From: Candidatus Liptonbacteria bacterium
GTDB lineage: Bacteria; Patescibacteriota; Minisyncoccia; UBA6257; 2-01-FULL-56-20
Direction: 5' to 3'
Assembly: GCA_016194445.1 (NCBI GenBank)
Contig: JACQBP010000040.1
Span: forward strand, 20,402-84,401
DNA: 64,000 bases
The notes beneath the pieces are model-generated. The model saw only the letters and a list, made by a program, of their open reading frames with translations. It was not told where the DNA came from and searched no databases. Of the stretch, positions 3,104 through 53,929 are shown in pieces. Within the stretch, counting starts at the first letter, position 1. Every line of letters begins with the position of its first letter. Both the position numbers and the translations under genes were made by a program.

Positions 3104-3117
3104 CGGTTTTTCTTTTA
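3104..3117 (+). terminator. third copy of the GCGGTTTTTCTTTT motif, at the convergent junction of the kinase gene and hddC
   Basis: Exact 14-mer shared with 1789-1802 and 2383-2396; T-rich tail; preceding stem is weak. Confidence 0.3.
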
Positions 3118-3936
3118 CTTCAAATTTTTAAGGTAATTTTCGACAAAATGGTAGCGGTCGACAGTGCCGATGTCTTTGCGCCACTCCCCGGCTTGAAGTT
3201 GGTAGGCATAGTATTTGAAACCCTTGCTTAAAAGATCGGGTACTAAATTGTGATCTATCTCGTAATATTTATTTTTGGGGATATATTCCAGAATTTTTTT
3301 TGAGAAAAGATAGGGCGCGGACATGCCGTAAAAACGCGGAATGGCGCGGACTGGCACCTGCTGGCGGTCGCTGATCGACGCGGATCCCGATTCTTTTTTT
3401 TCTGATCTGATAAGGCGATCGAGCAGATCTTGGCTATGGGGTTTGATTAAAAATTCTTTGACTTCATGGTTTTCTCCGACGATGGCTAAATCGGAATCTT
3501 CGGGATGGTCCGTCTTTCGAACTGTGCCGACTCCAATGGCGTCTTTTTTTGAGAAATACAAATTTTTAAGCTCAGAGTAATCAAGTTGATAAAAAGTATC
3601 GCCATAAAGAACGAAAAAATAATCGCCAAGAGAGTCTTCGAAATCTTTGATGCCGCCGGCCGTACCTAAAATTTCGGGCTGTTCCAGAAAATAATTTATT
3701 TTGACGCCGAACTTTGAGCCATCGCCGAAATGCTCGGTGATGACATCCGGCAAGTAGTGAAGATTGATAAAAAATTCACTGATGCCATGTTTCTTAAGCG
3801 CTTCAATATGCCACTCGAGGAGCGGTTTGCCTTCCAGGGGCACCATGACTTTGGGGATCTTGCCTTGAGTGATTTCTTGGAGCCGAGTGCCCAAGCCAGC
3901 GGAGAGGATGATGGCTTGATGGATGATTTTAGTCAT
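3115..3936 (-). CDS. hddC: sugar-1-phosphate nucleotidyltransferase, likely D-glycero-alpha-D-manno-heptose 1-phosphate guanylyltransferase
   Basis: N-terminal ILSAGLGTRL pyrophosphorylase motif and GTAGG; 273 aa; operonic with gmhB, gmhA and a GHMP heptose kinase. The symbol is inferred from context. Confidence 0.55.
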   Translation of the reverse strand: MTKIIHQAIILSAGLGTRLQEITQGKIPKVMVPLEGKPLLEWHIEALKKHGISEFFINLHYLPDVITEHFGDGSKFGVKINYFLEQPEILGTAGGIKDFEDSLGDYFFVLYGDTFYQLDYSELKNLYFSKKDAIGVGTVRKTDHPEDSDLAIVGENHEVKEFLIKPHSQDLLDRLIRSEKKESGSASISDRQQVPVRAIPRFYGMSAPYLFSKKILEYIPKNKYYEIDHNLVPDLLSKGFKYYAYQLQAGEWRKDIGTVDRYHFVENYLKNLK

Positions 3937-3939
3937 AAG

Positions 3940-4515
3940 TTATTGATTACTCGTGATGCGCTTGATGATTTTGATGGCTCCCTGAAGATTTTGGGTAGTG
4001 AAATCGGGTTTTATTTTATAATAATTGTCTTTGCCGGCGTAGCCGGTTTTAACTAAAATAGTTTTAAGTTTGGCATTTTTACCGGTCAAGATGTCGCGGG
4101 TGTGGTCACCAATCATAAAGCTTTTTTTGAGGTTAATTTTATATTTTTTGGCGGCTTTCAAAATCATTCCGATATTAGGTTTGCGACAATGGCATTTTAC
4201 CCGATATTTTTTTAAGTTGGCGTTGGGGTGATGGGGGCAGTAGTAGATCGCGTCAATTTTCGCCCCTTTTCTAGCCAGGCGGCTAATTAAAACGGCGTGG
4301 ATTTTATCAACTTCTTTTTCGGTAAGCCAACCGCGGGCGATGACTGGTTGGTTCGTAATCACGATGACGAGAAACCCCAGACGGTTGATTTTTTTGATGG
4401 CTTCAGCGGCGCGGGGTAAAATTTTTAGCTGTTTTAAGTCGCGGAGGACATCGACTTCGCGGTTAATGGTGCCGTCGCGATCTAAGAAAACGGCTGGATG
4501 ATGACTCATAAACAA
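3940..4515 (-). CDS. gmhB: HAD-family D,D-heptose 1,7-bisphosphate phosphatase
   Basis: VFLDRDGTIN HAD motif I, later GD..TD; 191 aa typical GmhB size; heptose operon context. Confidence 0.6.
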   Translation of the reverse strand: MFMSHHPAVFLDRDGTINREVDVLRDLKQLKILPRAAEAIKKINRLGFLVIVITNQPVIARGWLTEKEVDKIHAVLISRLARKGAKIDAIYYCPHHPNANLKKYRVKCHCRKPNIGMILKAAKKYKINLKKSFMIGDHTRDILTGKNAKLKTILVKTGYAGKDNYYKIKPDFTTQNLQGAIKIIKRITSNQ

Positions 4516-4563: not shown

Positions 4564-5172
4564 TTATGATTTTGATACAAGATGATCGAAATAGTCTTTG
4601 AAGTATTTAATGATGAGGTGAAGAATTACACCATGTACTCCTTCGACAACAAAATAATTTCCTCCTTTCGTAGGAACATGAAGTTTCGCATCTGACAACT
4701 GATTTAAAGTGTTGGTATTTTCAAAACCGGATAAACCGATAACTGGTACCTTACGTTTCTTGGCAAGCTCAACTGCTTTTACAATATTGGCTGAATTGCC
4801 AGAACTTGAAATTGCAATGATCGCGTCCGCGTCCTGTAAATAGTTTTGAAGAGGGCCGGCGAAGACCATGTCGAATCCCACATCGTTCGCCCAAGCAGTT
4901 AACTCTTCCTCGGTGGTTGGCAGGCGGATGGCTTGAAACCGACGGTGGTGTTTGTCGAGCTCATGACCAGTATGGCCAAAAACGGTTTTATTAAAATCGC
5001 AGACCCAATGAGTGGCGAGAGCAAGGGAACCGCCATTACCAAAAACATAAATGCGGCCGTCGCGTTCATAGGCGGCTTCTAGAATATTTAAAGCTTTGGC
5101 AATTTCTAGGTTAGGCAAGTTTTTAAGCGCGCTTTCTGTTTCCGATACAAATTCTTTTATGTAGCTTTCCAT
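4564..5172 (-). CDS. gmhA: SIS-domain phosphoheptose (sedoheptulose-7-phosphate) isomerase
   Basis: GNGGSLALATHWVCDF matches the GmhA signature GNGGSAADAQHFAAE; 202 aa. Confidence 0.6.
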   Translation of the reverse strand: MESYIKEFVSETESALKNLPNLEIAKALNILEAAYERDGRIYVFGNGGSLALATHWVCDFNKTVFGHTGHELDKHHRRFQAIRLPTTEEELTAWANDVGFDMVFAGPLQNYLQDADAIIAISSSGNSANIVKAVELAKKRKVPVIGLSGFENTNTLNQLSDAKLHVPTKGGNYFVVEGVHGVILHLIIKYFKDYFDHLVSKS

Positions 5173-5177
5173 ATTAT

Positions 5178-6200
5178 TTACACGAAATTTTTATGATAAT
5201 GATCGCCATTATATAGGATTTCCGCCCCGCTTTGGACAAACTTGACTGGGATTTCTCTAAATTCATTTAAACTTTTTTCGGTGGCTACTTTTTTAACTGA
5301 TTCAAGGATGGCATTTTTTTTATCTAAAGGACAGATGAATAAAACACAACCGCCGCCGCCGGCGCCTAAGATTTTACCGCCCCAGGCGCCAGCGCTCACG
5401 CCAGCGTTATAAAGATCGTCGATAGTGGAGTTAGAAACATTCGACGCGAGACTTTTCTTTTTTAACCAACCTTGATGAAGCATGGCGCCGAGCCCCCGGA
5501 TGTCACCGGAGATGATTCTGTCCGCAAAATCAGAGACGGAGTCGGCCATTTCAGAAAGAGTTTGGAAGTTGTCATTAGTATTAGCTTTTTGCTCAGTCAA
5601 GACAGAAGAAGCATCGCGAGTGATACCGGTATAGAAAATTAAGAGACTATCTTCGAGTAAAAGACGTTTTTTGTAATCGATCAAAAGCGGAGAGACATCG
5701 ACAGATTCATCGGGATTGAATTGAAGAATGTTGAAACCACCGAAAGAGGCGGCGTACTGATCCTGTTTGCCGATGGGTTCACCCAAGAGATTAATTTCTA
5801 AGTGACTGGCCGCTTCGGCCGCTTCGCGCTGGTCAATCTTTATACCTTGAAAGGCGTTTAGAACTTTAATTAAAGCCACAGAAAAGCTGGAAGAGGATCC
5901 GAAGCCGGTTTTGGCGGGCATACTGGCGAAAGAAGAAATTTCTATATTCTTTTTTATATTTAAATTCGAGAGGGCGGCTTTGATGCGGGTGTGTTTTAAA
6001 TCTTCTAACTGGTCGACAGATTCAGTGATGGAATAGCGGGCGGTAACTTTGTCGATCATGGGAGTGCGGTTAACGACCACGTAGACAAATTTGTCGATGG
6101 CAGTTGAAATCACCCGGCCCGGGCGGCGGTGATAAAAATCGGGGAGGTCAGTGCCACCCCCAACAAAGCTGATGCGTAAGGGTGCTCGAACTACAATCAT
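5178..6200 (-). CDS. hddA: GHMP-family sugar kinase, likely D-glycero-alpha-D-manno-heptose 7-phosphate kinase
   Basis: N-terminal APLRISFVGGGTDLPDFY and a GHMP ATP-binding G/S-rich motif (GFGSSSS); 340 aa; next to gmhA and gmhB. Confidence 0.55.
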   Translation of the reverse strand: MIVVRAPLRISFVGGGTDLPDFYHRRPGRVISTAIDKFVYVVVNRTPMIDKVTARYSITESVDQLEDLKHTRIKAALSNLNIKKNIEISSFASMPAKTGFGSSSSFSVALIKVLNAFQGIKIDQREAAEAASHLEINLLGEPIGKQDQYAASFGGFNILQFNPDESVDVSPLLIDYKKRLLLEDSLLIFYTGITRDASSVLTEQKANTNDNFQTLSEMADSVSDFADRIISGDIRGLGAMLHQGWLKKKSLASNVSNSTIDDLYNAGVSAGAWGGKILGAGGGGCVLFICPLDKKNAILESVKKVATEKSLNEFREIPVKFVQSGAEILYNGDHYHKNFV

Positions 6201-6259: not shown

Positions 6260-7375
6260 TTAGTTTTTGATACCAAGCTTGAGGCGCTTAAGATACTTTA
6301 AGTTAAGTTGCTTGGTGAATTTTTCTTTTTGAAACCATTCAACGTAACTTTTGATTGAATCTTCAGTGGAGAATTTTGGCCGCCAGCCGAGTTTCTTAAT
6401 TTTAGAAATGTCGGAGATTGCTTCTCTTGTGTCGGTGCGCCGGAAACCCGAGATTAGAATAGGGGAGGTGGCGCCGGTGATTTTTTTGACGAGGTTAGCA
6501 AAGTCGAGCACTTTCCAGGCGCGGCCGCCACCGACATTATAAATTTCAAAATCAGTTTTTTTGTTATTGAGCGCTAAAAGATTGGCGCGAACAACGTCGC
6601 GAATATTTACAAAATCTCTGGTTTGCTCGCCATCTTCGTAGACAGTAATGGGGACACCGGCGAGACTCTGACTGACAAAAATGCGGATGGCGCCAGAGTA
6701 TAGATTGAAGGGCGACTGGCGAGGACCTTGGACAATCGAGTAGCGAAGAATCGTGGTGGGAATGCTATAAGTTTTTCCGAGGCGCAAACCCAGGTTTTCC
6801 ATGGCCTGCTTGGAGAGGCCGTAGGAGTTGGTAGGCATCAATTTCTGATTTTCTTTGAAGGGGTGGAAGTTGGCTCGAGAGCCGTGAGGACATTTGATGG
6901 ACCAGTCTTTTTTTTGGAATTGTTTTAAGGGTCGGACTTCTGGGAAAAAAGTTTGCTGGGAATGAGGGCAAGAATACTCGCCGTCGCCGTAGATGAATTG
7001 GGTGCTAGCCAAAATAATTTTTTTGACCGGCAGTTTTTTGGCGGCGATGATTTCATAGAGAAGAGCGGAGCTCAAAACATTAGTTTCGAAAAATTTGGAA
7101 AAGTCGGGACGTTGATCTTGGTAGGCGGCGATGTGGTAGACGTAACTTACACCCCGCAGAGACCGCTCGATAGTTTTTTTGTTTCGAATATCGCCTTTGA
7201 TTAGTTCATAACTTTTATTTTGGACGTATTTAGGCCACCGATGGTTTTGGTGAATGGGAGGTTCGAGCGAATCAAGGATTTTTACTTTGTACCCTTTCCC
7301 CAATAAAGCATCGCCGGTATGACTACCGATAAAACCAGCGCCACCTGTTATAAGAACGGTTGCTTTCTTAGCCAT
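6260..7375 (-). CDS. NAD-dependent epimerase/dehydratase (extended SDR), possibly acting on GDP-heptose
   Basis: TGGAGFIGSH Rossmann motif; 371 aa, with an insert containing CPHGSRANFHPF. Confidence 0.6.
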   Translation of the reverse strand: MAKKATVLITGGAGFIGSHTGDALLGKGYKVKILDSLEPPIHQNHRWPKYVQNKSYELIKGDIRNKKTIERSLRGVSYVYHIAAYQDQRPDFSKFFETNVLSSALLYEIIAAKKLPVKKIILASTQFIYGDGEYSCPHSQQTFFPEVRPLKQFQKKDWSIKCPHGSRANFHPFKENQKLMPTNSYGLSKQAMENLGLRLGKTYSIPTTILRYSIVQGPRQSPFNLYSGAIRIFVSQSLAGVPITVYEDGEQTRDFVNIRDVVRANLLALNNKKTDFEIYNVGGGRAWKVLDFANLVKKITGATSPILISGFRRTDTREAISDISKIKKLGWRPKFSTEDSIKSYVEWFQKEKFTKQLNLKYLKRLKLGIKN

Positions 7376-8111
7376 TACTAATCTTCACCACTTTTTTTAG
7401 ATCTTCCATCCAAACTCGAAGAATATCTTGATTTTCTTTTTCTTTGCCGATTAAATAGGATGAGAGAATTTCTTCAGCGACTTTTAGCTCACTAACATCT
7501 TGACTCGTTTTTCTGGCCACGCAGAGAATATTAGGGATGACGTTGATACCGATAGCGTCCTTGATCGCAGAGGGGGTGAGTTTGGCTATGGCATCGAAGA
7601 TGGTGTTTAATTGGTAATCGACGCGTTTAGCCAGGTTGTTTCTCATCTTCACGATCTTAACTACTTCAAAACCCAGTTTTCCTAAAATGGAGCGGTACTT
7701 CTCTTCGAACCAACCGTCGTAATGGATGGCCCACGCGGCTTCGTTCGAACCGAAAATGTGGCGCAGATAGAGGCCTTTTTTTTTAAAAGGAGCATTCAAA
7801 AAATCTCTGGAAGATTCTTCAAAATCGGGAGTTTCGATCACTAATAATCCTCCGATTTTTAGCCAACGGCGCCAATTGATAAGCAAGGCTAAGGCTTCGG
7901 TTCTGGGAAAATGTTCGAGGACATGGTGGTGACGAATTTCGTCGACGGTACCTTCGGGATAAACGAGGGATCTTATTTCGGTGTATTGATCGGCTTGAAT
8001 ATTAACGATGGAGTGTTGGGCCTGGGGATAGTCGATATTAAAATAACCTTTTAAATAGATTTCCCCACAACCGAGGTGAAGGCGCAGAGGTTTGGGTTCT
8101 TGGTGATTCAT
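7368..8111 (-). CDS. class I SAM-dependent methyltransferase (type 11-like)
   Basis: LHLGCGEIYLKGYFNID and HHVLEHF motifs; 4-nt overlap with the upstream gene. Confidence 0.5.
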   Translation of the reverse strand: MNHQEPKPLRLHLGCGEIYLKGYFNIDYPQAQHSIVNIQADQYTEIRSLVYPEGTVDEIRHHHVLEHFPRTEALALLINWRRWLKIGGLLVIETPDFEESSRDFLNAPFKKKGLYLRHIFGSNEAAWAIHYDGWFEEKYRSILGKLGFEVVKIVKMRNNLAKRVDYQLNTIFDAIAKLTPSAIKDAIGINVIPNILCVARKTSQDVSELKVAEEILSSYLIGKEKENQDILRVWMEDLKKVVKISNG

Positions 8112-8125: not shown

Positions 8126-9070
8126 TTAGGGGCTGCTTCTTTTGGATCTTTCTCTTGAATGATACCACGAAACAGCTAGGACGTGCCCTTTGTGATAGAA
8201 ACGATTCGGCAGGAAAGATAAGAGATATTGGAGCCAGGTTCTGGGATGGAATGACTTGACTGCTAAAGCTTTTTTTAGATACTCTCTTGCTTCTTTAGGA
8301 CGCGCTAAGCGAATTAGTTTTCCGGCGATGATTTGGAGAAATAAAAGATGGACGCGGGGGTGGCTCGTGATGAAGGAATGGTGTTTTTTATAAACTGTGA
8401 GTTCGGTATTCAGGTAATCCTCGAGGCGATAACTTAAACGGTAGCCTTGGTGAACATAGATATTAACTAGTGGTTTTTTCACGTAGTCAAAATAAAATTC
8501 TTTCGAAAGCCGCAGAAACATTTCGTAATCTTCTCCAGTGGTCACGTTTTCATCATAGGAGCCAACCTTTATAACGGCACTCTTTCTTAATAGAGGATTG
8601 GAAGCGGAACCAGTTAAGGTATCCCGGTGGCTAATTACATAGTTATAGACATGGCCTCTAAGTTTAGGGAAGATGGTTTCGAAAATTTTGCCGGACTCGG
8701 CGGTGATGTGAAAATAGGCGCCGTAGACTAATCCGGTTTTCCCAATTTTATCTTCCTTGAAAATTTGGTATTGATCCTCGAGTTTATTCGGCAACCATTC
8801 GTCGTCGTCATCGAGGAAGGCTAGGAATTCGCCGCGGGATTCTCTGACGCCTAAATTGCGAGCCCAGGAAATGTTCCCGGGGGCGTGACGAATATAGTAG
8901 ATTCTTGGATCATTGAATTCTTTAACGACATCGGCGGTATTATCCGAAGAACTGTTATCGAGAATTAAAAGTTCAAATTCAGTGAAGGTCTGACCAAGGA
9001 CGCTTGAAATGGCTCGGTGGAGCATTAAGGCTCTGTTCCAGGTGGTGATAATGGCTGAAATTTTAGGCAT
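8126..9070 (-). CDS. family 2 glycosyltransferase
   Basis: ISAIITTWNR...LDNSSSD...DDDDEW: GT-A fold DxD architecture. Confidence 0.6.
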   Translation of the reverse strand: MPKISAIITTWNRALMLHRAISSVLGQTFTEFELLILDNSSSDNTADVVKEFNDPRIYYIRHAPGNISWARNLGVRESRGEFLAFLDDDDEWLPNKLEDQYQIFKEDKIGKTGLVYGAYFHITAESGKIFETIFPKLRGHVYNYVISHRDTLTGSASNPLLRKSAVIKVGSYDENVTTGEDYEMFLRLSKEFYFDYVKKPLVNIYVHQGYRLSYRLEDYLNTELTVYKKHHSFITSHPRVHLLFLQIIAGKLIRLARPKEAREYLKKALAVKSFHPRTWLQYLLSFLPNRFYHKGHVLAVSWYHSRERSKRSSP

Positions 9071-9081
9071 AATGGTTCTAA

Positions 9082-10074
9082 TTAAAGAAGAGCGTCTGAC
9101 GCTTGAGAGTACTTTCTCATGACAAATTTTCGGCGAGCATAACGAAGAGCTGGAGAAAAAATAAAGAGGGGTAAAAAGAAAGTGATAACTGAGTTGGCAT
9201 AATAAGTAAGATTGTTTCGGGTAAGGGCTCTTTTTCTTTTAAGCCAATCGATCGCGTTTTTCTTATCTTTGACAATAAGCGCTCCGATGTATCCTTTGGT
9301 CAACCAAACACTTCTCTGATTTTTGATTTGAGACAAGAGATCGGAAAGCTGGATTCCGACATATTTTTTCTTAACTTCAGTTTCTAGCCAGTCGAATATT
9401 TTAATATTGGTCTCGGCGGTTTCGATGAGATAGGAGCCTTGGAAAGAGAGATTTTCCCGATGAAATCTCAAGTGGCCGAGGATTTTATTAAGATACTGAA
9501 ATCTGGCCCCTTTGAGAATAAGCTTGAGCCAAATAATGTGATCGTCGGCGCGGCGGAAACTTTCATCGAAACAGTCGATCACTTTTTCTTTTTTTATGAA
9601 GGTTCCCAGAAAATTAATAAAATTGTGCGCAATAAGATTTTCTAAGTTAACTTCAGGGAAGTAGTGGAGATCAAAGCTAAGAAAATGAGCGGGTCTTTCG
9701 GTTTCGAAATATCGAATGTCTCCGTAATACACATCGTAGCCGCTTTGGATGTTGGCAACTAAAGTCTCACAAGCTTGGGGCAAGAGAATGTTGTCCGCGT
9801 CTAAAAAACTCACCCATTGCCCGTGAGAAGATAGGAGCCCATTTTTCCTGGCGGCGGACTGCCCTCGGTTAACCTGTGAAAGGGATCGGCAATTTTGATG
9901 ACGAGATTCATACCGCTTGATTATTTCGGCGGTTTTATCGGTTGAACCATCATTGATTACAATCACTTCGATATTGGAGTAGGTTTGATTGAACGCCGAA
10001 GAAAGGGTGGCCTCGAGAAATGGCTCGGCATTATAAGCTGGGATGATGATAGATATGAGAGGTTGCTTATTCAT
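9082..10074 (-). CDS. family 2 glycosyltransferase
   Basis: ISIIIPAYNAE...VINDGSTDKT...FLDADN. Confidence 0.6.
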   Translation of the reverse strand: MNKQPLISIIIPAYNAEPFLEATLSSAFNQTYSNIEVIVINDGSTDKTAEIIKRYESRHQNCRSLSQVNRGQSAARKNGLLSSHGQWVSFLDADNILLPQACETLVANIQSGYDVYYGDIRYFETERPAHFLSFDLHYFPEVNLENLIAHNFINFLGTFIKKEKVIDCFDESFRRADDHIIWLKLILKGARFQYLNKILGHLRFHRENLSFQGSYLIETAETNIKIFDWLETEVKKKYVGIQLSDLLSQIKNQRSVWLTKGYIGALIVKDKKNAIDWLKRKRALTRNNLTYYANSVITFFLPLFIFSPALRYARRKFVMRKYSQASDALL

Positions 10075-11117
10075 GGAGAGATCCCAATCTTTTTGAATAA
10101 AGTTTTAAATCTTATTTTGTAGGTATGGTCTTGGAGAGTTCTCTGGTAAGCGGACTGGGCAATGGCTTCTCTTTCTTTGTCGTGCGATAGATAATATCTG
10201 ATTTTTTCGATAAGGTCACGCAGAGAGGTGTAGAATATCATTTCCTCACCTTCCGCATAGGATTGTTTTATATCATCAGAGAGACCAGAGATAACAAAAG
10301 CTCGACAACCGGCAAGTTCGAAGGGGCGGGCATGGGTGTGGGGAATAGCAAAGTGGAGATAAGCCTGGAGGTTGTTCAAGAGATGGAAATCTAGCTTTAA
10401 CTTATCGATGGATTTTTTAAAGAAAAGGCGGGCGATGACTTTAGGGGAAAGGCGGCTAGGACGGACATTGAGGTTGAGGTTAATTTTACTGCGAGAAAAA
10501 ATCTCGAGCATCTTTTCTTGAGAAATTCTGCCGCTCGGCCAACCATAACCAAAAGTTTGGACTTTTAAGCCAGCAGCTTCTAGGGTTTGGATAATTTTAC
10601 CGCGGGGAGTTTTAAATTGACCGATAAAACTTATATCGATATCTTTTTTAAGATCGAGGGGTTGATAAAGGGAGTCGTTACAGGCCCATTGGGAGGGGAT
10701 GACGTTTTCAAAACCTTGCTTACGGTACCAAGCGATGGCTTTTGAATAAGTAGTGATAACCCAGCTGAAATAGGGCGGCCAAGTTTTAGAATAGTTCCAG
10801 AAGCGCCAATAGTCGTCGGCGAACCAAGCGACACTTTTAGTTTTATGTTTGATTTTAAGAAGAAAATTAGGGTCAAGCTCGTTGGTATACATAAAAGCGA
10901 AAAAGAGATCGGGTTTTTCCTTTTCCACTAAAGCCAGAAGTTCTTCATTAAATTTTCGTTTACCGACTTCCAAGATGCGATCAAAGGGATGTTCAATAAC
11001 TTGGAGGCCGGGCATATTTTTTAGAGTAAGGTAAAAATTATTATACTCGAAACTTAGGCCACGATGGGGTTGATAGTTTTCTCTTTGAAGACCGGAGTAG
11101 ATGACCTTAAGAGACAT
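10071..11117 (-). CDS. CgeB-like / DUF3880 glycosyltransferase (paralog 1 of 5)
   Basis: Central WFADDYWRFWNYSK...SWVITTYSKA and C-terminal ELAGCRAFVIS...IRYYLSHDKEREAIAQSAYQRTLQDHTY; closely similar to 37123..38253. Confidence 0.5.
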   Translation of the reverse strand: MSLKVIYSGLQRENYQPHRGLSFEYNNFYLTLKNMPGLQVIEHPFDRILEVGKRKFNEELLALVEKEKPDLFFAFMYTNELDPNFLLKIKHKTKSVAWFADDYWRFWNYSKTWPPYFSWVITTYSKAIAWYRKQGFENVIPSQWACNDSLYQPLDLKKDIDISFIGQFKTPRGKIIQTLEAAGLKVQTFGYGWPSGRISQEKMLEIFSRSKINLNLNVRPSRLSPKVIARLFFKKSIDKLKLDFHLLNNLQAYLHFAIPHTHARPFELAGCRAFVISGLSDDIKQSYAEGEEMIFYTSLRDLIEKIRYYLSHDKEREAIAQSAYQRTLQDHTYKIRFKTLFKKIGISP

Positions 11118-42785: not shown

Positions 42786-43503
42786 GGACGTCCCGGTGGA
42801 TGTTTCCTTTTGCCGCCCAGAGACTAGCCTCCAGAAGAGAACCGAAGGTTCCAGCGTCAGCCCAGAAACCAGAAATATTCCCGTAGTTTAGTTTTTTGAT
42901 TTCGGCGTATTTATTTAAGGCGTCGGTAATTTCGAGTTCTCCTCTGCCCGAAGGTTTTAACTCGGAAATTATCTCAAAGACCACTTTATCAAAAAGATAA
43001 AACCCGGTTACGGCGTACCTGGATTTTGGATTTTCCGGTTTTTCCTCAACTTTAACGATTTCCCCTTTTTCAAAAACAGGCACACCAAAACGCTTGAGAT
43101 CGGAAACTTCTTTAAGAAAAATTTTGGCTCCGATTTTGAACTCGTTAACATCTTTTTCGAAATTATCATCAAAAATATTGTCGCCTAGGATCACGGCTAT
43201 GGAGTCGCCTTTGGAAAAATCTCTGGCTTTTTTTAGGGCCTCCGCAATCCCGCCGGCGCCAATCTGAGGAGCGTAAGTAAGGGAAACCTGATGGTCTACG
43301 CCGTTTTTCAAAAAATTAGAAAAAAGCTCGAGGTGTGAGCTTTCTGAAACAATCAAAATTTCGTCGATGCCGCTCTTGCGCAGAGTTGCGATCGGATAGA
43401 AAATCATCGGCCGATCATAAATAGGCAGAAGATGTTTGTTAGTAACGCCAGTGAGAGGAAGCAAGCGCGTTCCAAACCCACCAGCCAAGATAACTCCCTT
43501 CAT
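42775..43503 (-). CDS. rmlA: glucose-1-phosphate thymidylyltransferase-like nucleotidyltransferase (short RmlA form)
   Basis: MKGVILAGGFGTRLLPLTGVTNKHLLPIYDRPMIFYP aligns closely with the RmlA N-terminus; 242 aa, shorter than canonical. Confidence 0.55.
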   Translation of the reverse strand: MKGVILAGGFGTRLLPLTGVTNKHLLPIYDRPMIFYPIATLRKSGIDEILIVSESSHLELFSNFLKNGVDHQVSLTYAPQIGAGGIAEALKKARDFSKGDSIAVILGDNIFDDNFEKDVNEFKIGAKIFLKEVSDLKRFGVPVFEKGEIVKVEEKPENPKSRYAVTGFYLFDKVVFEIISELKPSGRGELEITDALNKYAEIKKLNYGNISGFWADAGTFGSLLEASLWAAKGNIHRDVHGD

Positions 43504-46901: not shown

Positions 46902-47687
46902 TTAACCTAAATGAGTGGAAAGAAATTCTCTTAGGTATTCGTCTGAGGTTTTGAGCGGATAGGGTGGGATAAGAGAGGCGAGTTTTAAGGTTGGCATTTC
47001 ATAAATTTGACATTTTGCCTCTTTGGCAAAAGAAATGTTTTTCCCGAAATATTGACTAATACTTTGAAAATCAACGGTGCCGCGCCCACCGACGTTGAAA
47101 ACCTCTTTTTTCACGGGGCGCCGCAAAAGCTCTTCGATCACCTCTGCGACTCCTTTGGTGGTAATCATTTGCAAGCGCGAATCTTCGGTAACGAAGAGGG
47201 GTTGGTTTTGGAGAATATCATGGACGGGACCCTTTTTCAAGTTTTGGCCGAGCATCATTGAGCATCGAAGGATAAGGAAGTCTTGGGTGTGATTACTAAC
47301 GATTATTTCACTTAGATATTTATGAAGGCCGTAAGGGGAAAGGATTTTGGGATCGATGAAGATATCTTCTCGAGTGTGGTCGAGGTGGCTGTGGTTTGGA
47401 TAGACATCACTCGAAGAGATATAGATATATTTGCCAAACTTAAAATCAAACAAACTTTTATAAACAGAAGTAGTTGAGGCTTCAAAATCTTCGAGGATAT
47501 TTTGGTTAGCCCAAAAACGGCGGCTGTTGCCGTTGGCGTTCACTAAAACATCAAACTCCTGGCCTTGGAACTCACTGTAATTATCTTTGTCGATGGCGGT
47601 GGTTTGGTGATGCTCGCCTAAAAACTTAACAAGATCGCTACCCAACATACCGCGGCCACCTAAAATACCTATGGTGAGCTTTTTCAT
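46902..47687 (-). CDS. dTDP-4-dehydrorhamnose reductase-like SDR (RmlD-like)
   Basis: ILGGRGMLGSDL N-terminus, SSSDVYPN...YGLHKY catalytic region; 261 aa. Confidence 0.45.
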   Translation of the reverse strand: MKKLTIGILGGRGMLGSDLVKFLGEHHQTTAIDKDNYSEFQGQEFDVLVNANGNSRRFWANQNILEDFEASTTSVYKSLFDFKFGKYIYISSSDVYPNHSHLDHTREDIFIDPKILSPYGLHKYLSEIIVSNHTQDFLILRCSMMLGQNLKKGPVHDILQNQPLFVTEDSRLQMITTKGVAEVIEELLRRPVKKEVFNVGGRGTVDFQSISQYFGKNISFAKEAKCQIYEMPTLKLASLIPPYPLKTSDEYLREFLSTHLG

Positions 47688-47730: not shown

Positions 47731-48402
47731 TCATGGTAACACCCCCCAACCGAAACCGGCATCCGCCAGTTTTTCGAAAATGGCAAAGTGGTCGCGCGAG
47801 TGAAACCCCTTGAACTGAGGCTGGATCTCAACAAACGCGCTAACTACTTTTTCCTTGATGGCCTGACTTCCTCCAGTAAGCACTTCATATTCGGTTCCTT
47901 CGACGTCAATTTTCAGAAAATCGATACTTGATATTCTCTGCTCACGAACAACGTCATCAAGACACCTGATTTGAACAATCATTTTTTTCTTAAAGCCAAT
48001 TTTTTTGTCCAAGAAAGAACTGCCGTCCGGATTAGGGGAAACATAAAACGCGAGCTGGCCTTCGTGGTTATGAAGACCATGTGGAAATAGCCGGACGCGT
48101 CTAGCGTAAGGAGCCGTTCGTTTGACTAACTGAGCGAAAGAATCCGGGAATGGTTCAAAACAATATATTATAGCGTTCGGAAACGCGCTCAAAAAATGGA
48201 GCGCATACTCTCCGGTGGCTGCTCCAACATCGAAAACCGTGTGTATCTTACCGGCTCCACCCGCAAGTCGTTCTGCTTCCTCGATTGCTCGATAAATTCC
48301 GCTCTTGCCCAACAACCGATGTTTAATCGGACGAACCCAGTTCTTGATCCTTTTTACAAACTCGAGCCGATACAATGCACCAAGAATTTTTGACGAGATC
48401 AT
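47731..48402 (-). CDS. FkbM-family methyltransferase
   Basis: VFDVGAATGEYALHF...IYCFEPFPDSFAQL. Confidence 0.55.
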   Translation of the reverse strand: MISSKILGALYRLEFVKRIKNWVRPIKHRLLGKSGIYRAIEEAERLAGGAGKIHTVFDVGAATGEYALHFLSAFPNAIIYCFEPFPDSFAQLVKRTAPYARRVRLFPHGLHNHEGQLAFYVSPNPDGSSFLDKKIGFKKKMIVQIRCLDDVVREQRISSIDFLKIDVEGTEYEVLTGGSQAIKEKVVSAFVEIQPQFKGFHSRDHFAIFEKLADAGFGWGVLP

Positions 48403-48415: not shown

Positions 48416-49381
48416 TTAGTTTTTCACTGCGGAGTCGTAATTCTTATCGAACCAATCTATAGTTTCCTTAATCCCGTCCTCGAGCGAGGTTCCTGGAAAC
48501 CAATGAAGTTTTTCTTTCATTTTACGGGTACTGAGTGTTTTCTTTAGCGCACCATCTGGCTTTGAGGTATTAAACACAATCTCACCGTCGTAGCCGATGA
48601 TTTTTTTAATAAGGCGCGCCAAATCAGCGATCGAAACACCTATGCCGCTTGCAATATTCAACGGTTCAATTTCGTTATAAAGCTCGCCAGCGCAAAGCGC
48701 GGCTTCGGCGCCATCTTCCACGTAAAGCCAATCACGAACCGGTTTGCCGGTTCCCCACACTTCAACGGATGGTAAATTATTTTTCTTGGCTTCGTAGAAT
48801 TTTTTGATAAGACCAGCGAGGGCTTTCGATTGATCGGGGTTAAAATGCTCCCCGGGCCCGTACATATTCGCATAGATTAAATGGATGGAGTTGAAATTAA
48901 ATTGCTTTTTTAAGGCTTTGCCGTAAACAACGCTCATTTTACGGGAAACGCCATAACTGAAGATAGAATCATGAACTTCACCACTCCAATAATCTTCTTC
49001 ATTTAATTCATCTTTTTCGACATAGCCAGGGTAAGAGCAACCCGCAACGATATTGATAAATTTTTGAACGCCGGATGCCTGCGCCGCTTCCATTAAAAAC
49101 AACCCCATCTTCATGTTATATAAGAAAAGTTCCGCTTCTTTCCCTTTATGAAAACCGATTCCTCCTTGAAACGCGGCACAGTTAATCACGACTTCTGGTT
49201 TAACTTTCTCCATGTACTCATAGCAGGTTTTTTCGATCGTGAAATCAATGCCTTGGTTGGTGCGAGGAATAAAAACTTCCGCGCCCGCATGCTTTAAACG
49301 TTCGACAATCCGCAAACCTAGAAATCCCCCTCCTCCAGGGACGGCAACTTTTTTCCCTTGGTAAAAACTAAGATGATCCAT
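48416..49381 (-). CDS. GDP-L-fucose synthase-like epimerase/reductase (Fcl paralog A)
   Basis: KVAVPGGGGFLGLRIVERL...NMYGPGEHFNPDQSKALAGLI...VWGTGKPVRDWLYVED. The longest ORF starts at 49519 and overlaps the upstream gene by 130 nt; the Met at about 49381 (MDHLSF) is preferred. Confidence 0.55.
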   Translation of the reverse strand: MDHLSFYQGKKVAVPGGGGFLGLRIVERLKHAGAEVFIPRTNQGIDFTIEKTCYEYMEKVKPEVVINCAAFQGGIGFHKGKEAELFLYNMKMGLFLMEAAQASGVQKFINIVAGCSYPGYVEKDELNEEDYWSGEVHDSIFSYGVSRKMSVVYGKALKKQFNFNSIHLIYANMYGPGEHFNPDQSKALAGLIKKFYEAKKNNLPSVEVWGTGKPVRDWLYVEDGAEAALCAGELYNEIEPLNIASGIGVSIADLARLIKKIIGYDGEIVFNTSKPDGALKKTLSTRKMKEKLHWFPGTSLEDGIKETIDWFDKNYDSAVKN

Positions 49382-49388
49382 TGATTTT

Positions 49389-50369
<981 letters not shown>

Positions 50370-50402: not shown

Positions 50403-50858
50403 TTATTCAAAACCGGCTAATTTTAGCATGTCTTGAGCATATTTTAACCACTTTTTGTCGATGCGGGAAAACCACTGCAACTTCGAACTTTGGAGATCGG
50501 GTTGAATAGTTTGGCCAGGTGGAACCAAAACAAGAAAAACTGAGTTGATACTATGAGTAGGGACCCCGAAAGAACTACTACTGGAAAAAAATTCCCGGGT
50601 AGTGATGAATTTTGAAATTTTAAATTTCTTAAGACCAGTCTCTTCTTCGACTTTTCGAATGACCGCTCGCCTCAAAGTTTCACCCCTTAGAACTCGACCG
50701 CCGGGAATACACCACTTGCCGATTCCAGGTTTGTTTTTTCTTTTGCAAAGGAGGAATTTTTCCCCGCTGACTAAAACTACGTCCACGCAAGGAATGGGCA
50801 TCACAGTCAAAATCTTACGATAGAACTGAGTGCTAATTTTAGCCTTTTTTACTTTCAC
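50403..50858 (-). CDS. gmm: NUDIX hydrolase, GDP-mannose mannosyl hydrolase-like
   Basis: Nudix box [24 protein letters not shown]; [32 protein letters not shown] aligns with Gmm/NudD; directly downstream of gmd. Confidence 0.55.
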
Positions 50859-51874
50859 GATATCCTAATCTCATCGGCTTTTTCCTTTAAGTTATGGCCC
50901 TCAAGGTCGTGCTTCAACATTTTTTTAACTAAATCTTTAAAACCGACTTTGGCCCGCCAACCCAGTTTTTCTTTGGCTTTCCGCGTGTCGGCAAATAGAT
51001 TTTCGACTTCAGTGGGACGGTAGTATTTGGAATCGATCTCAACATAATCCTGCCAGTTCAAACCGGCTAATTTGAAAGCAGTTTCCACAAATTCTTTGAC
51101 GCTGTGGCTTTCGCCCGTGCCAATCACATAATCTTCTGGGTTGGGCTGTTGAAGCATTAGCCACATGGCTTCAACATATTCAGGAGCATAACCCCAATCG
51201 CGTTTAGCGTCGAGGTTGCCGAGGTAAAGTTTTTGATCTAAACCAGCTAAGATTCTCGAAATGCCGCGAGTAATTTTTTTAGTGACGAAAGTTTCGCCGC
51301 GCCGTTCGGATTCATGGTTGAAAAGAATGCCATTGACCGCAAAAATATTGTGAGCTTCTCGATAGTTTCGGGTGGTGTGATAGGCAAAAACTTTGGCGCA
51401 AGCGTAGGGGCTGCGTGGATAAAATGGAGTGTTTTCGCTCTGGGGAGGCGGGGTAGCGCCGAACATTTCGCTGGAACTGGCTTGGTAAAATTTCACTTTC
51501 TTGCCAGTGTGTTCTTCATAGTCCTTGATAGCTTCAAGAAGCCTTAAGGTGCCAAGTCCGGCAATGTTCACTGTATATTCCGCAATATCGAAAGAGACCC
51601 GGACGTGGGACTGGGCACCAAGGTTATAAATCTCATCGGGTTGAACTTTGTAAATCAACCGACGAATAGTGTTGGCGTCAGCCAGATCTCCATAGTGGAG
51701 AAAGAGATGGTGCTCTTTTTCATGGGGGTCTTGGTAAATGTGGTCAATGCGGCCAGTGTTAAAACTTGAAGCTCTGCGGATGATACCGTGAACCTCGTAA
51801 CCCTTAGAAAGAAGGAGTTCAGCCAAATAAGATCCGTCCTGGCCGGTAATGCCAGTAATAAGAGCTTTCTTCAT
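50855..51874 (-). CDS. gmd: GDP-mannose 4,6-dehydratase
   Basis: [48 protein letters not shown] is near-identical to the Gmd consensus. Confidence 0.8.
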
Positions 51875-51891
51875 ACCAACTTTTTATCATG

Positions 51892-52521
51892 CTATTTCTT
51901 TTTAGTCAAGACTTTCGCCATAAAATCTTCCAGAGCTTTTTTGGTTCTTTCTTCATTGGGCCACTGGTTTAAAATTTGATCGGCGATACGTTTGACTTCG
52001 GAGACATTGCCCTCGACCCTATAAACATCAAAAAGTCCAAAAAGGACTTGGGGACGTTTAGGACCAAGTTCATAAGAAGAGAGATAGTATTTCTTAGCCG
52101 CAGCCAAGTAATTAACTTGTTGAGTTTTAAGAAAAGCTAGCTCATTTAAGGAACCAAGGAGATAAAGATTTTGGTTGAAGCTCATGCCGCGACCACTTTG
52201 AATAATAGGATCATAGTTTTGACTAAGATAATTCATAAGATCAGCAATGACCTCGGGTTTGACGTTGGGTTGACTCAAGATATTAGTAAATAAACTGCCG
52301 ACCTGCCGGACTAACTCCTCTTGGCCAAACGGAGAGTGAAAATCGAGTGGAGCAGAAATCCGACTTTTTAGCTCATCGAGAGTGGTCGCTTCGTTTAGTG
52401 TTCGCATGGTCTCTATAAAAAGCTGGGCTTTACGCAGTGGCCGGTAAGACCCGTAATGAGCAACAAAAATGATGAAGCTGCTTAAAGCAACCGCGATGAT
52501 TTTTTTAAGGTTTGGGTTCAT
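51892..52521 (-). CDS. hypothetical protein with N-terminal signal anchor
   Basis: 209 aa; hydrophobic N-terminus then soluble domain; no motif. Confidence 0.4.
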   Translation of the reverse strand: MNPNLKKIIAVALSSFIIFVAHYGSYRPLRKAQLFIETMRTLNEATTLDELKSRISAPLDFHSPFGQEELVRQVGSLFTNILSQPNVKPEVIADLMNYLSQNYDPIIQSGRGMSFNQNLYLLGSLNELAFLKTQQVNYLAAAKKYYLSSYELGPKRPQVLFGLFDVYRVEGNVSEVKRIADQILNQWPNEERTKKALEDFMAKVLTKKK

Positions 52522-53929
52522 AGGACTTTAAAAATTGGTACGAACTAAAAGCCAAGAAAAGGAAGAGGTTGAGGTAAATAGGGAGAACATCAAAGAGGGC
52601 GAGACCTTGGACTAAATAGCCGATCGAGAGAGCAAGCATCATACCCTTGACAACAGACTGGTGAGGGAGCGAAGTTGATTCAGGTGAATGGTCGGCTAAC
52701 GCCGTTTTTCTTCGAGAAAAAATATGCCAGAAAAAAACGACAAAAATCCCTAAATAACTAAGGAGGCCAAAAATCCCAGTCTCAGTTAAGTAATCGAAGA
52801 AAACGCTATGAGCTCGATCGAACCAGGTTTCAGAATTCGTACCCGGGACGTAATGCCGAGGATCGAAATGGCGATCAAAGACGGTGCTGAAATTTTCGGG
52901 GCCCCAGCCCAAGAGAGGGCGTTCTTTAAAACCCTGCCAAGCAGAGTTCCAGGTCCAAAAACGAGTTTTAAAAGTTTGATCACCGGGACTAATATTTAAA
53001 AGTCGGTTGTTGGCAAGTTGGGCATAGAACGAGGAGCAAGTGGTTTTGGCGCAGAGGGGAGAGACATAGAAAGAAACCCAAACCAATAAACCAGCTAACA
53101 AAGCGGAGAGAGTTAATCCAGTAGCAAACCATTTTTTTGCTTTTCCGCGGCTGGTAAAAAAGAGATGGACAAAAAAATACAAAAGAGCGACTAAGAGGCC
53201 TAAAAAGGCGCCGCGGGTGCGACTAAAGTAAAAAAAGAGGAGGAAGAAAATAATGAGAAAACTGTGAGTAGCCCAAATAAACCATTTTTTCTTAGCGGGT
53301 GAAGTAAACCAAAGATAGGCGGCATAGAAAATAGCAAACAGAAGATAGGGAGCGACATAGGCCGGGTTACCGAGAGAACCTTGGAATCTAGCGTTGGTGT
53401 CGGTTAATTTTGCCCAGACACCGGGTAACGAAGACTCGCTGTAGGGAGTGATAAAACTGTGGAACAAACTTGAATTAAACGGGATGCCATAAAGAATCAT
53501 TAAAGAGGCGGCGATCACCGAAAGCATAAAGATTTTTTTCCATTCTTTTTGATCCTGAAACACCAAAAGAAGCAGAACGAAAAAAAGATAATAATGAAGC
53601 ATTTGGAAGCCGCCTTCCCCTCTTTCGTAGTTAGACCAAAAAGCGGAAGCGGGACTGTAGGCAAAAAGCGAAGCCAACAAGTAAAACAAGACAAATGCAG
53701 AAACAGCGACGAAAAGCGGCTGCCGATAAATTTTTTTAAATCGCTCTTGAAGAGATCCGGAGGGTGACCCGAAGGCCCACCAGAGCAATAAAAAGACGAG
53801 GGCAAGTTCAGTGCAAATCCTAAAAAAATAATATTTGCCCCCGATAAAAGGGAAGAAAGTGGAGGGTAGGACAACCACCACGCTAAAAACTGAGGCGTAA
53901 AGAAAAAATTTAGAGATTTTGAGTAACAT
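52505..53929 (-). CDS. O-antigen ligase/polymerase-like (Wzy/WaaL-family) polytopic membrane protein
   Basis: 474 aa, about 10-12 TM helices with a large periplasmic loop. Confidence 0.45.
   Translation of the reverse strand: MLLKISKFFLYASVFSVVVVLPSTFFPFIGGKYYFFRICTELALVFLLLWWAFGSPSGSLQERFKKIYRQPLFVAVSAFVLFYLLASLFAYSPASAFWSNYERGEGGFQMLHYYLFFVLLLLVFQDQKEWKKIFMLSVIAASLMILYGIPFNSSLFHSFITPYSESSLPGVWAKLTDTNARFQGSLGNPAYVAPYLLFAIFYAAYLWFTSPAKKKWFIWATHSFLIIFFLLFFYFSRTRGAFLGLLVALLYFFVHLFFTSRGKAKKWFATGLTLSALLAGLLVWVSFYVSPLCAKTTCSSFYAQLANNRLLNISPGDQTFKTRFWTWNSAWQGFKERPLLGWGPENFSTVFDRHFDPRHYVPGTNSETWFDRAHSVFFDYLTETGIFGLLSYLGIFVVFFWHIFSRRKTALADHSPESTSLPHQSVVKGMMLALSIGYLVQGLALFDVLPIYLNLFLFLAFSSYQFLKSYEPKP

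Follow-up and report, generated by a model that had tools for sequence, protein, structure and literature searches.

A glycan locus next to rny

The 64,000-nucleotide stretch analysed here, referred to as the window (contig JACQBP010000040.1 of assembly GCA_016194445.1, positions 20,402 to 84,401, Candidatus Liptonbacteria bacterium), carries a large surface-glycan locus next to rny, the gene for RNase Y. We listed all open reading frames (ORFs) and scanned each plausible gene against Pfam and NCBIfam. As collected in Table 1, positions 3115-53929 hold 51 contiguous, nearly all glycan-related genes that make up 95.5% of the sequence and lie on the minus strand throughout, except for the Wzx gene (12135-13616) and the small EamA-like gene (13621-14037). 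The scans show that the ~51-kb surface-glycan locus proposed here by the initial annotation, which had been made from the sequence alone, is real, and they support its claim of at least four nucleotide-sugar routes. They likewise return the eleven transferases it had counted (five GT2, five PF13524 'Glyco_trans_1_2' and one YfhO GT-C) and, within 3115-53929, its one Wzx flippase, one Wzy_C polymerase or ligase and one YfhO protein. Its nine short-chain dehydrogenases/reductases (SDRs) have to be raised to eleven extended SDRs, and its six methyltransferases consist of three FkbM proteins and three weak class-I methyltransferase-like proteins (7368, 11129, 38222), to which one B12 radical-SAM enzyme is to be added. 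In the flanks, the Fic/Doc, DUF4258, DUF2283 and holin-like family with four transmembrane (TM) segments that it had named are present, while SecG was not found among the ORFs of the intergenic regions. The tRNA and Rfam scans of the window gave no match at gathering thresholds, nor at E<=1 in the two long non-coding stretches. We have high confidence in this gene content.

The nucleotide-sugar genes fall into several routes. A route of the GDP-heptose type is encoded by contiguous SIS, GHMP kinase, HAD and NTP-transferase genes at 3115-6200; all four domain types expected for GmhA, HddA, GmhB and HddC are present, and the best NCBIfam models are those of the heptose enzymes, all scoring under their equivalog cut-offs. 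A second, HldE-like heptose route is found at 24301-25836 together with a separate nucleotidyltransferase at 17370-17885. These heptose assignments are made with moderate confidence. A dTDP route comprises dTDP-glucose 4,6-dehydratase and an RmlA-like gene, and a GDP-6-deoxyhexose route Gmd with three Fcl-like SDRs and a NUDIX hydrolase. A DegT aminotransferase (22101-23231) counts with these nucleotide-sugar genes. Elsewhere in the locus, a two-gene unit of a methyltransferase-like and a PF13524 transferase gene occurs at 10071-12202 and again at 37123-39022; because the two copies have the same order and are 37.6% and 38.4% identical, they point to an old segmental duplication.

The initial annotation was right in describing a single very large locus, but its boundaries were incomplete, as glycan genes go on to the left of the window. 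An independent Logan contig (73,756 bp), which matches window 1-28924 at 99.99% identity with the GC shifts included, reaches ~11.5 kb beyond window position 1 and bears there a left sub-locus of six further glycan genes (GT2, a second Wzx/MurJ-like flippase, NTP-transferase, DUF218, SDR and a 453-aa Bac_transf protein), followed by a DsbA-like gene. The Bac_transf protein is a priming phosphoglycosyltransferase whose gene lies ~5-6.3 kb left of window position 1 on the same contig; inside the window, family scans found no initiating polyprenyl-phosphate phosphoglycosyltransferase. Between the two sub-loci is a non-glycan insert of AAA_33, DUF4258 and DUF2283 genes and a gene for a 372-aa protein ending at window 58-930. 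Since the second Wzx and the Bac_transf genes lie left of the window on the contig, the glycan region measures about 60 kb in all.

A chimeric assembly joining fragments of different organisms could also produce a locus of this size, and the spread of block GC from 0.40 to 0.53 (0.442 overall, 0.49 in 15411-22016, 0.466 in the housekeeping flank) might be read in that way. However, the Logan contig (73.8 kb) and the NCBI contig (94.6 kb; 94,588 bp) are 99.99% identical over window 1-28924, a stretch that includes the GC shifts, so that chimerism is very unlikely. Moreover, many relatives show synteny with the right flank and with the anchor genes, the same module order occurs in a relative on a single 191-kb contig, and the high-GC block (0.49) is near the housekeeping flank (0.466). 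As to the organism, the suggestion of the initial annotation that it belongs to the Candidate Phyla Radiation (CPR) proved correct: RNase Y (54157-55680) finds its best matches, at 75-82% identity, in Parcubacteria-type metagenome-assembled genomes, and PanB, RNase Y and a 209-aa protein of the locus are on NCBI record as Candidatus Liptonbacteria bacterium (MBI3589586.1, MBI3589621.1, HY093_04390), which gives us high confidence in the taxon. The locus tag HY093_04390 suggests at least ~880 genes in the genome, if tags step by 5. Because closed or near-closed relatives (contigs or chromosomes of 561,860, 804,691, 840,672 and 913,682 bp) measure 0.56-0.91 Mb, the ~60-kb glycan region likely occupies 6.6-10.7% of the genome, with the size taken from these relatives.

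When the proteins of the window were compared with 80 rny loci taken from GTDB species representatives (comparison loci are given below by our L numbers), it became clear which parts of the region are kept. The gene order comM, dksA-like, SBP5, holin-like, iPGM and divergent rny is widely retained. In the 68 relatives for which 3 kb or more of sequence downstream of rny is available, Wzy_C adjoins rny in 38 and its 209-aa TPR-like partner is present in 37; of the 56 with 6 kb or more downstream, 27 have Gmd within 5 kb. By contrast with these anchor genes, other window glycan genes at 40% identity or more are wholly missing from 32 of the 49 relatives with 9 kb or more downstream, and none of the 49 has more than three. 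Modules are also reshuffled between genomes, L022 for example having heptose genes at 65-70% identity. L013 and L083, which share an overlap of 141 identical bases, lie on one 191-kb Liptonbacteria contig, where the locus downstream of rny measures 31 kb or more and holds the same kinds of modules. Thus, the hypervariability against related genomes that the initial annotation had raised is found, with the anchor kept and the cargo almost entirely different, and we conclude with high confidence that the site downstream of rny is a lineage-conserved hot spot whose anchor consists of Wzy_C, the 209-aa TPR-like protein, Gmd and Fcl.

A cassette with PanB, YerE-like and radical-SAM enzymes

The most novel part of the locus is 13621-32198, with its HldE-like, Cj1427-like, DegT, YerE-like, PanB, AspAT-like, B12 radical-SAM, GT2, flippase and YfhO genes; the combination of PanB, YerE-like and B12 radical-SAM heptose genes had gone unrecognised in the initial annotation. 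PanB (17932-18924), a surprising gene for a glycan locus, passes both cut-offs (NF001452, 278 bits vs 272; TIGR00222, 231 vs 208) and keeps all of the E. coli PanB residues D45, S46, D84, K112, E114, H136 and E181. Its product, ketopantoate, is a gamma-hydroxy-alpha-keto acid. The neighbours of PanB are a class-I, aspartate-aminotransferase-like (AspAT-like) enzyme and a thiamine-diphosphate (ThDP) enzyme of the acetohydroxyacid synthase (AHAS) fold with the GDG ThDP motif present, the PDB matches of which are JanthE (8rph) at 377 bits, PpYerE (5ahk) at 345 bits and AHAS at 279 bits. Both JanthE and PpYerE have been described as YerE-like enzymes, of which JanthE accepts ketones (PMC12247030), and YerE-family enzymes in lipopolysaccharide (LPS) clusters couple gamma-hydroxy-alpha-keto acids, made by a neighbouring aldolase, to 4-keto sugar nucleotides, with erwiniose and caryophyllose as products (Steitz et al., PMC9306805).

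For the neighbourhood count, we used metagenome contigs and four genome contexts that had enough flank, included the window, and scored a YerE-like gene within ~6 kb. A YerE-like gene stood beside PanB in all 11 loci in which PanB was at least 48% identical, and in none of the 31 in which it was at most 47% identical. No pyruvate aldolase supplying a 2-oxo-acid donor is present, and PanB takes that place in 11/11 loci. These counts bear on the idea that PanB, the AHAS-like and the AspAT-like enzymes belong to primary metabolism (pantothenate and branched-chain amino acids) and merely lie inside the locus, for which it speaks that PanB exceeds its equivalog cut-offs and that the best NCBIfam model of the ThDP enzyme is the acetolactate synthase large subunit, with 433 bits. 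That score is, however, under the cut-off of 538, the YerE-like structures outscore the AHAS structures, and the linkage counts (11/11 versus 0/31) connect this clade of PanB with glycan genes. Furthermore, panC, panD and panE families were absent from the window, L081, L083, L085 and L086, and so were ilvN, ilvC and ilvD from the window and the four related contexts. We therefore regard a primary-metabolic role as decidedly improbable.

Given the class of acid to which ketopantoate belongs and the precedent of the YerE family (PMC9306805), we propose a three-step donor route: the AspAT-like transaminase would supply ketoisovalerate from valine, PanB would hydroxymethylate ketoisovalerate to ketopantoate, and the ThDP enzyme would decarboxylate ketopantoate and transfer the acyl group so formed to a 4-keto sugar. 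In seven loci an AspAT-like gene adjoins an ordinary PanB as well, in keeping with a role in keto-acid supply. This specific ketopantoate-branch chemistry is put forward tentatively, with a confidence between low and just short of probable. Alternatively, PanB could act directly on the keto-sugar nucleotide and place a C-hydroxymethyl group beside the 4-keto group, with no free keto-acid donor. PanB always lies among keto-sugar-generating SDRs, some of the loci have no class-I aminotransferase, and substitutions specific to the YerE-linked PanB clade (S47, N166, K169, Y248) fall within or close to the loop after the catalytic His, all of which would suit direct action. On the other hand, the E. 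coli PanB residues reported to bind Mg2+ and the 2-oxo acid in the 1M3U structure are invariant in the clade, and the AspAT-like genes beside ordinary PanB speak for a free keto acid; the strict pairing with YerE-like genes, too, fits the logic of donor supply (PMC9306805). Direct action of PanB on the sugar is thus unlikely.

With regard to its origin, the window PanB is 81% identical to that of L083, a Liptonbacterium of 53% GC, while the RNase Y proteins of the same pair are 67% identical; this difference, and a block richer in GC than its surroundings, suggest lateral exchange of the PanB module within Liptonbacteria.

The B12 radical-SAM enzyme (15411-17294) has 366 homologues, and all named ones belong to Patescibacteria. 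In five other contexts of this gene that we compared (L168-L172), heptose-activation genes and an SIS gene were present every time, as was a ThDP enzyme forming C-C bonds, YerE-like in L169 and an E1/transketolase-like pair or fusion in the others. Three of the five carry the reversed CT-PfkB fusion at 41-50% identity, orthologues of the 245-aa GT2 occur in L168-L170, and a GtrA-like protein in L168 and L170. Two E1_dh/Transket_pyr pairs are seen in L086 (51-5512), L170 and L172. Because such pairs stand in related cassettes besides or instead of the YerE-like enzyme, several ThDP-dependent branch-forming enzymes appear interchangeable in heptose clusters. Literature searches, the incomplete coverage of which makes them weak evidence, returned nothing that links PanB to branched sugars and nothing on radical-SAM/heptose cassettes or large CPR glycan loci.

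Two SDRs of the locus, at 45953-46900 and 23275-24288, have 6vo6 as their best solved relative, the former at 296 bits vs 110 bits for the next structure. We take 6vo6 to be Cj1427, the GDP-heptose C4 dehydrogenase. Orthologues of the first SDR abut HddA/HddC-like genes in L003 and L172, and orthologues of the second are 54-55% identical in L170 and L172. Downstream of 45953-46900 lies an LhgO-like gene (44737-45849), and the same pairing is found in L013. The initial annotation had called this gene a 'DAO fragment', but a pseudogene was ruled out: the 370-aa frame is intact and stays open to 45849, and an apparent CTG start lies 6 nt downstream of the strong ribosome-binding site AAAGGAGG. 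ORF finders limited to ATG, GTG and TTG shorten the gene to 281 aa. Cj1427 turns 2-oxoglutarate into L-2-hydroxyglutarate by reduction (PMC10680097). By analogy, the SDR at 45953-46900 would oxidise GDP-heptose with 2-oxoglutarate as cosubstrate, and the adjacent L-2-hydroxyglutarate-oxidase-like flavoenzyme would restore 2-oxoglutarate. For a ping-pong use of 2-oxoglutarate with tightly bound NADH, this neighbouring gene is an indirect hint.

Taken together, the genes of the cassette can be arranged in a pathway. The SIS, PfkB-kinase, HAD and nucleotidyltransferase proteins would activate a heptose, the Cj1427-like SDR would oxidise its C4, DegT could aminate the 4-keto sugar, the YerE-like ThDP enzyme could add an acyl branch, and the B12 radical-SAM enzyme would modify an unactivated carbon, possibly with a methyl group. 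A role of DegT (22101-23231) as a ColD-type C3 dehydratase was ruled out because the catalytic Lys is retained. The GtrB-like GT2 would then load the sugar on polyprenyl phosphate, the EamA-like protein would flip it and YfhO would attach it outside the membrane. We infer such a YfhO-type three-component route for the modified heptose, of which the GT2 assignment is the weakest link; the trio of GT2, small EamA-like protein and YfhO recurs beside ThDP/PanB genes in L083 and L093. Judged from homology and gene neighbourhood, the product of the module appears to be an undescribed branched seven-carbon sugar, made with an enzyme borrowed from vitamin B5 synthesis. A bolder and rather doubtful extension is that CPR bacteria recruited PanB, the YerE-like and the cobalamin radical-SAM enzymes for a new class of higher-carbon sugars, with YfhO attachment and the L-2-hydroxyglutarate oxidase cycle as further parts; the product would be a heptose with a ketopantoate-derived (3-hydroxy-2,2-dimethylpropanoyl-type) C-branch, exported on polyprenyl phosphate.

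Assembly and delivery of the glycan

The 209-aa protein that accompanies Wzy_C falls in no Pfam family and has 125 homologues, all named ones of which are from Patescibacteria or Paceibacterota. Its AlphaFold2 model (35 sequences; pLDDT 93.6) consists of one N-terminal TM helix and a helical-repeat domain, and fold searches gave only generic TPR matches at E>=0.005; no function was drawn from the hits to OGT and SPY among them. In another CPR contig, L171, a gene directly after the B12 radical-SAM orthologue encodes a 740-aa Wzy_C-TPR fusion (10060-12282), which supports the view that Wzy_C and the 209-aa protein act as functional partners. A stable Wzy_C is typical of ligases and oligosaccharyltransferases, while Wzy polymerases usually co-vary with the repeat unit. 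Since Wzy_C remains 45-56% identical across genomes with differing cargo, and family scans found neither Wzz/PCP nor an LCP ligase in any window ORF, there is mild support for a ligase or oligosaccharyltransferase over a repeat-unit-specific polymerase. As regards the S-layer or pilin that the initial annotation had considered as acceptor, no such gene lies inside the window; the conserved Wzy_C with its TPR-like partner and the lack of Wzz and LCP genes in the window are the only hints at a protein acceptor.

These same data bear on the possibility that the product is not a protein glycan but a wall-associated or lipid-anchored polysaccharide, such as a secondary cell-wall polymer or capsule, with Wzy_C as the Wzy polymerase. 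The combination of Wzx, Wzy_C and Bac_transf corresponds to the architecture of Wzy-dependent polymers, and YfhO homologues reportedly glycosylate teichoic acids in Firmicutes (PMC8035078). Yet the missing Wzz/PCP and LCP ligase genes, the ligase-like constancy of Wzy_C beside unrelated glycan genes, and the TPR-like partner, which also exists fused to Wzy_C, argue against it, and we consider a polysaccharide of this kind possible without favouring it.

We consider it probable that the locus is one arm of the ~60-kb surface-glycan region, with variable cargo at the rny hot spot that serves a main pathway, a second pathway and a cofactor cycle. Among the cargo are 10 Leloir-type transferases, 6-7 methyltransferases and an aminotransferase, besides two routes for heptose activation and those for dTDP- and GDP-6-deoxyhexoses. 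In the main pathway, a complex methylated hetero-oligosaccharide would be built on undecaprenyl phosphate and flipped by Wzx, and the Wzy_C/TPR pair would transfer it en bloc, or polymerise it, onto an envelope acceptor; the branched-heptose and YfhO genes would form the second pathway, and the Cj1427-like/LhgO-like pair the cofactor cycle. A different organisation, in which several independent glycan systems (the left Wzx/phosphoglycosyltransferase cluster, the Wzx cluster, the YfhO decoration system and the Wzy_C/GDP-fucose core) lie side by side at a recombination hot spot and make at least two different glycoconjugates, is a real possibility that we rate somewhat short of probable. There are indeed two Wzx genes, the left sub-locus is set off by the DUF4258/DUF2283/AAA_33 insert, modules recur separately in other genomes and the two-gene methyltransferase and transferase unit is duplicated; in addition, YfhO-type systems reportedly act on a pre-existing polymer (PMC8035078). 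Against this stand the nearly uniform direction and dense coding of the 51 genes and the single priming transferase and single Wzy_C on the 73.8-kb contig, and the idea is in any case largely compatible with the one-region explanation, where the YfhO branch is already separate.

Several points weigh against the one-region explanation and the branched-heptose pathway within it. All substrate assignments derive from homology and gene neighbourhood, most heptose-route enzymes score under the NCBIfam equivalog cut-offs, and the equation of 6vo6 with Cj1427 is presumptive. The TM helices of GtrB/CsbB are missing from the 245-aa GT2, which matches these proteins weakly (31 bits), its best PDB matches, GtrB sll0501 and ArnC, reaching 25-31 bits over the N-terminal 115 residues only; the multi-TM protein at 13621-14037 has an EamA hit of 27.5 bits, under the Pfam cut-off of 28.2. 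An AspAT-like gene accompanies glycan-linked PanB only in Liptonbacteria loci, and elsewhere a DegT or SDR gene is found there, so that the keto-acid supply step is not universal. A neighbour-joining tree parts the YerE-linked PanBs from the others by a short branch and leaves the linked one of L095 among ordinary ones; as this separation is weak, we relied on gene neighbourhood and not on phylogeny. Finally, the sequence of Wzy_C is compatible with a polymerase as well as with a ligase or oligosaccharyltransferase.

Table 1. Genes and other features in and around the glycan locus (window coordinates)
Feature	Position	Strand	Basis
C-terminal part of 372-aa protein; divides main locus from left sub-locus	58..930	+	gene calls on L082; no Pfam hit
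DUF2283 1825-2043 (-), DUF4258 2048-2296 (-), AAA_33 P-loop kinase-like 2470-2856 (+); non-glycan	1825..2856		family scans
Sugar-1-phosphate nucleotidyltransferase, HddC-like	3115..3936	-	PF00483; HddC model 81 bits, under cut-off
GmhB-like heptose 1,7-bisphosphate phosphatase (HAD-IIIA)	3940..4515	-	NF006506 162 bits vs cut-off 178
GmhA-like sedoheptulose-7-P isomerase (SIS)	4564..5172	-	family scans
HddA-like GHMP heptose-7-P kinase	5178..6200	-	best NCBIfam HddA, 145 bits, under cut-off
Extended SDR bearing insertion	6260..7375	-	family scan
Weak class-I methyltransferase-like protein	7368..8111	-	family scans
Two GT2: 8126-9070, 9082-10074	8126..10074	-	family scan
PF13524 GT-like, paralogue of 37123-38253	10071..11117	-	family scan
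Weak Methyltransf_24/3-like, paralogue of 38222-39022; 277 aa as called in Logan assembly	11129..12202	-	
Wzx-type flippase (Polysacc_synt)	12135..13616	+	PF01943 137 bits; ~12 hydrophobic segments
Small EamA/TMEM234-like membrane protein, candidate polyprenyl-P-sugar flippase	13621..14037	+	under Pfam cut-off
245-aa GT2, candidate polyprenyl-phosphate glycosyltransferase (GtrB/ArnC/PgfS-like, without TM helices)	14097..14834	-	
NUDIX hydrolase	14831..15298	-	family scan
B12-binding radical-SAM enzyme, 627 aa	15411..17294	-	family scans
RfaE-domain-II-like nucleotidyltransferase, 171 aa	17370..17885	-	NCBIfam
PanB (ketopantoate hydroxymethyltransferase), glycan-linked clade	17932..18924	-	Pfam, NCBIfam, alignment
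Class-I (AspAT-like) aminotransferase	18983..20155	-	family scans
YerE-like ThDP carboligase (AHAS-large-subunit fold)	20181..22016	-	family scans, PDB matches
DegT-family sugar aminotransferase, catalytic Lys present	22101..23231	-	family scans
Cj1427-like SDR, paralogue b	23275..24288	-	best PDB match 6vo6, 160 bits
Fused nucleotidyltransferase (N-terminal) and PfkB kinase (C-terminal); HldE-like, domain order reversed	24301..25836	-	
Three ORFs without family: 181 aa, 228 aa, 133 aa (3 TM segments); GC 0.52	26015..27923	-	
Extended SDR	28025..29029	-	Pfam/NCBIfam scans
Endonuclease/exonuclease/phosphatase-family protein	29060..29845	-	family scan
YfhO-family GT-C, 778 aa, ~11 hydrophobic segments	29862..32198	-	PF09586 37.6 bits vs cut-off 28.5
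FkbM methyltransferase	32195..33121	-	family scan
PF13524 GT-like protein	33170..34225	-	family scan
Extended SDR	34229..35167	-	Pfam/NCBIfam scans
PF13524 GT-like protein	35164..36207	-	family scan
FkbM methyltransferase	36447..37238	-	family scan
PF13524 GT-like protein	37123..38253	-	family scan
Methyltransferase-like, paralogue of 11129-12202	38222..39022	-	sequence comparison
PF13524 GT-like protein	39029..40099	-	family scan
Two GT2: 40018-40851, 40848-41792	40018..41792	-	family scan
Fcl-like SDR	41823..42785	-	Pfam/NCBIfam scans
RmlA-like glucose-1-P thymidylyltransferase	42775..43503	-	Pfam/NCBIfam scans
dTDP-glucose 4,6-dehydratase	43590..44660	-	TIGR01181 432 bits vs cut-off 365
L-2-hydroxyglutarate-oxidase-like FAD enzyme, 370 aa, intact	44737..45849	-	best family 215 bits vs cut-off 299
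Cj1427-like SDR, paralogue a, candidate GDP-heptose C4 dehydrogenase	45953..46900	-	best PDB match 6vo6, 296 bits
Short SDR (RmlD-like, weak)	46902..47687	-	family scan
FkbM methyltransferase	47731..48402	-	family scan
Two Fcl-like SDRs: 48416-49519, 49389-50330	48416..50330	-	Pfam/NCBIfam scans
NUDIX hydrolase, GDP-mannose mannosyl hydrolase-like	50403..50858	-	Pfam/NCBIfam scans
GDP-mannose 4,6-dehydratase (Gmd)	50855..51874	-	TIGR01472 541 bits vs cut-off 415
Membrane-anchored TPR-like helical-repeat protein, 209 aa, conserved Wzy_C partner	51892..52521	-	
Wzy_C-family membrane protein (ligase, oligosaccharyltransferase or polymerase)	52505..53929	-	Wzy_C 69 bits
RNase Y (rny), conserved anchor upstream of hot spot, outside glycan pathway	54157..55680	-	

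Some further features of the window were observed. The three ORFs at 26015-27923 have the highest GC of the window (0.50-0.55) and no homologues in the other cassettes; in the 181-aa product an H...HD pattern can be seen by eye, and the relative L083 has a protein of equal length. In the left flank, ~900 bp at 930-1825 (GC 0.53) contain only mutually overlapping ORFs on both strands, with no Pfam hit, only sub-threshold Rfam noise and no nucleotide conservation in relatives; this may be a decayed gene or a novel element beside the DUF4258/DUF2283 pair. In the right flank, a non-coding gap of 757 bp (55680-56437) separates the divergent rny and iPGM genes, the spacer being ~300-430 bp in the three closest relatives; Rfam gave no match to the gap at E<=1, and it is not conserved in any meaningful way in relatives. 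For the Doc and ComM genes (62530-62985 and 60750-62276), the products of the longest ORFs lack exact database records, and the deposited annotation probably uses other start codons.

Known systems and meaning

CPR bacteria are thought to be episymbionts with very little biosynthetic capacity, and to our knowledge teichoic acids are not established in them. Since what is likely 6-10% of a sub-megabase genome is spent on a hypervariable glycan, we argue that in this groundwater Liptonbacterium with a probably tiny genome the cell surface ranks among the main targets of selection, by way of attachment to hosts and pressure from phages and predators. The fixed anchor (rny, Wzy_C, TPR partner, Gmd and Fcl) with its swappable cargo offers a marker for serotype-like diversity in Paceibacterota metagenomes. 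The PanB/YerE-like pairing would add a new donor-forming enzyme to the scheme published for acyl-branched sugars and provides candidates for ThDP biocatalysts taking bulky gem-dimethyl hydroxy-keto acids, and the Cj1427-like/LhgO-like pairing suggests a way to recycle the 2-oxoglutarate cosubstrate of that unusual dehydrogenase. If true, the branched-heptose proposal would amount to a monosaccharide pathway that has not been known so far and that is widespread in an uncultivated radiation. The locus as a whole is of known kinds, namely Wzx-dependent glycan loci and YfhO systems, while the PanB/YerE-like/B12 radical-SAM heptose cassette, the Cj1427-like/LhgO-like pair and the Wzy_C/TPR anchor are, as far as we could find, undescribed variants. 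We know of no description in Campylobacter of an LhgO-like flavoenzyme beside a Cj1427-like gene.

Among known systems, the YerE-family clusters for acyl-branched sugars (yersiniose YerE/YerF; erwiniose ErwE/F/I/J; caryophyllose MMAR_2331-2333; PMC9306805, PMC12247030) resemble the cassette in having an AHAS-fold carboligase among 4-keto-sugar enzymes, a neighbouring enzyme that makes gamma-hydroxy-alpha-keto acids (here, as we propose, PanB) and SDRs for side-chain reduction. They differ in that the donor-forming enzyme is a pyruvate aldolase there and PanB, acting by hydroxymethyl transfer from methylene-tetrahydrofolate, here; that the acceptor is CDP-3,6-dideoxyhexose there and likely a heptose nucleotide here; and that the cassette here also includes a B12 radical-SAM enzyme and a class-I aminotransferase, in a monoderm-like CPR bacterium without LPS. 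With the Campylobacter jejuni capsular heptose pathway (GmhA, HddA, GmhB, HddC, Cj1427, epimerases and reductases; PMC10680097), the locus shares the two SDRs whose best solved relative is 6vo6, taken to be Cj1427, and further SDRs for C4 reduction; it has no cupin C3/C5 epimerase in the window, and it has a second, HldE-like activation route and the L-2-hydroxyglutarate-oxidase-like flavoenzyme beside the Cj1427-like gene. As in the CsbB/GtrB, GtcA/GtrA and YfhO systems of Firmicutes (PMC8035078), a YfhO GT-C occurs together with a GT2 and a small multi-TM protein; the GT2 here, however, is a 245-aa protein without TM helices, the small protein is EamA-like and not GtrA, and the set is linked to what we propose to be a dedicated branched-heptose pathway. 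Finally, Wzx/Wzy O-antigen and capsule loci and protein O-glycosylation loci (PglL/WaaL-type; Tannerella forsythia, PMC6120980) share Bac_transf, many glycosyltransferases and methyltransferases, Wzx and Wzy_C with this region, and hypervariability at a fixed chromosomal site is common to both. Unlike them, the region lacks genes for Wzz, LCP, lipid A-core or a known acceptor, its Wzy_C is paired with a lineage-specific TPR-like membrane protein, and it probably takes up an unusually large share of a sub-megabase genome.

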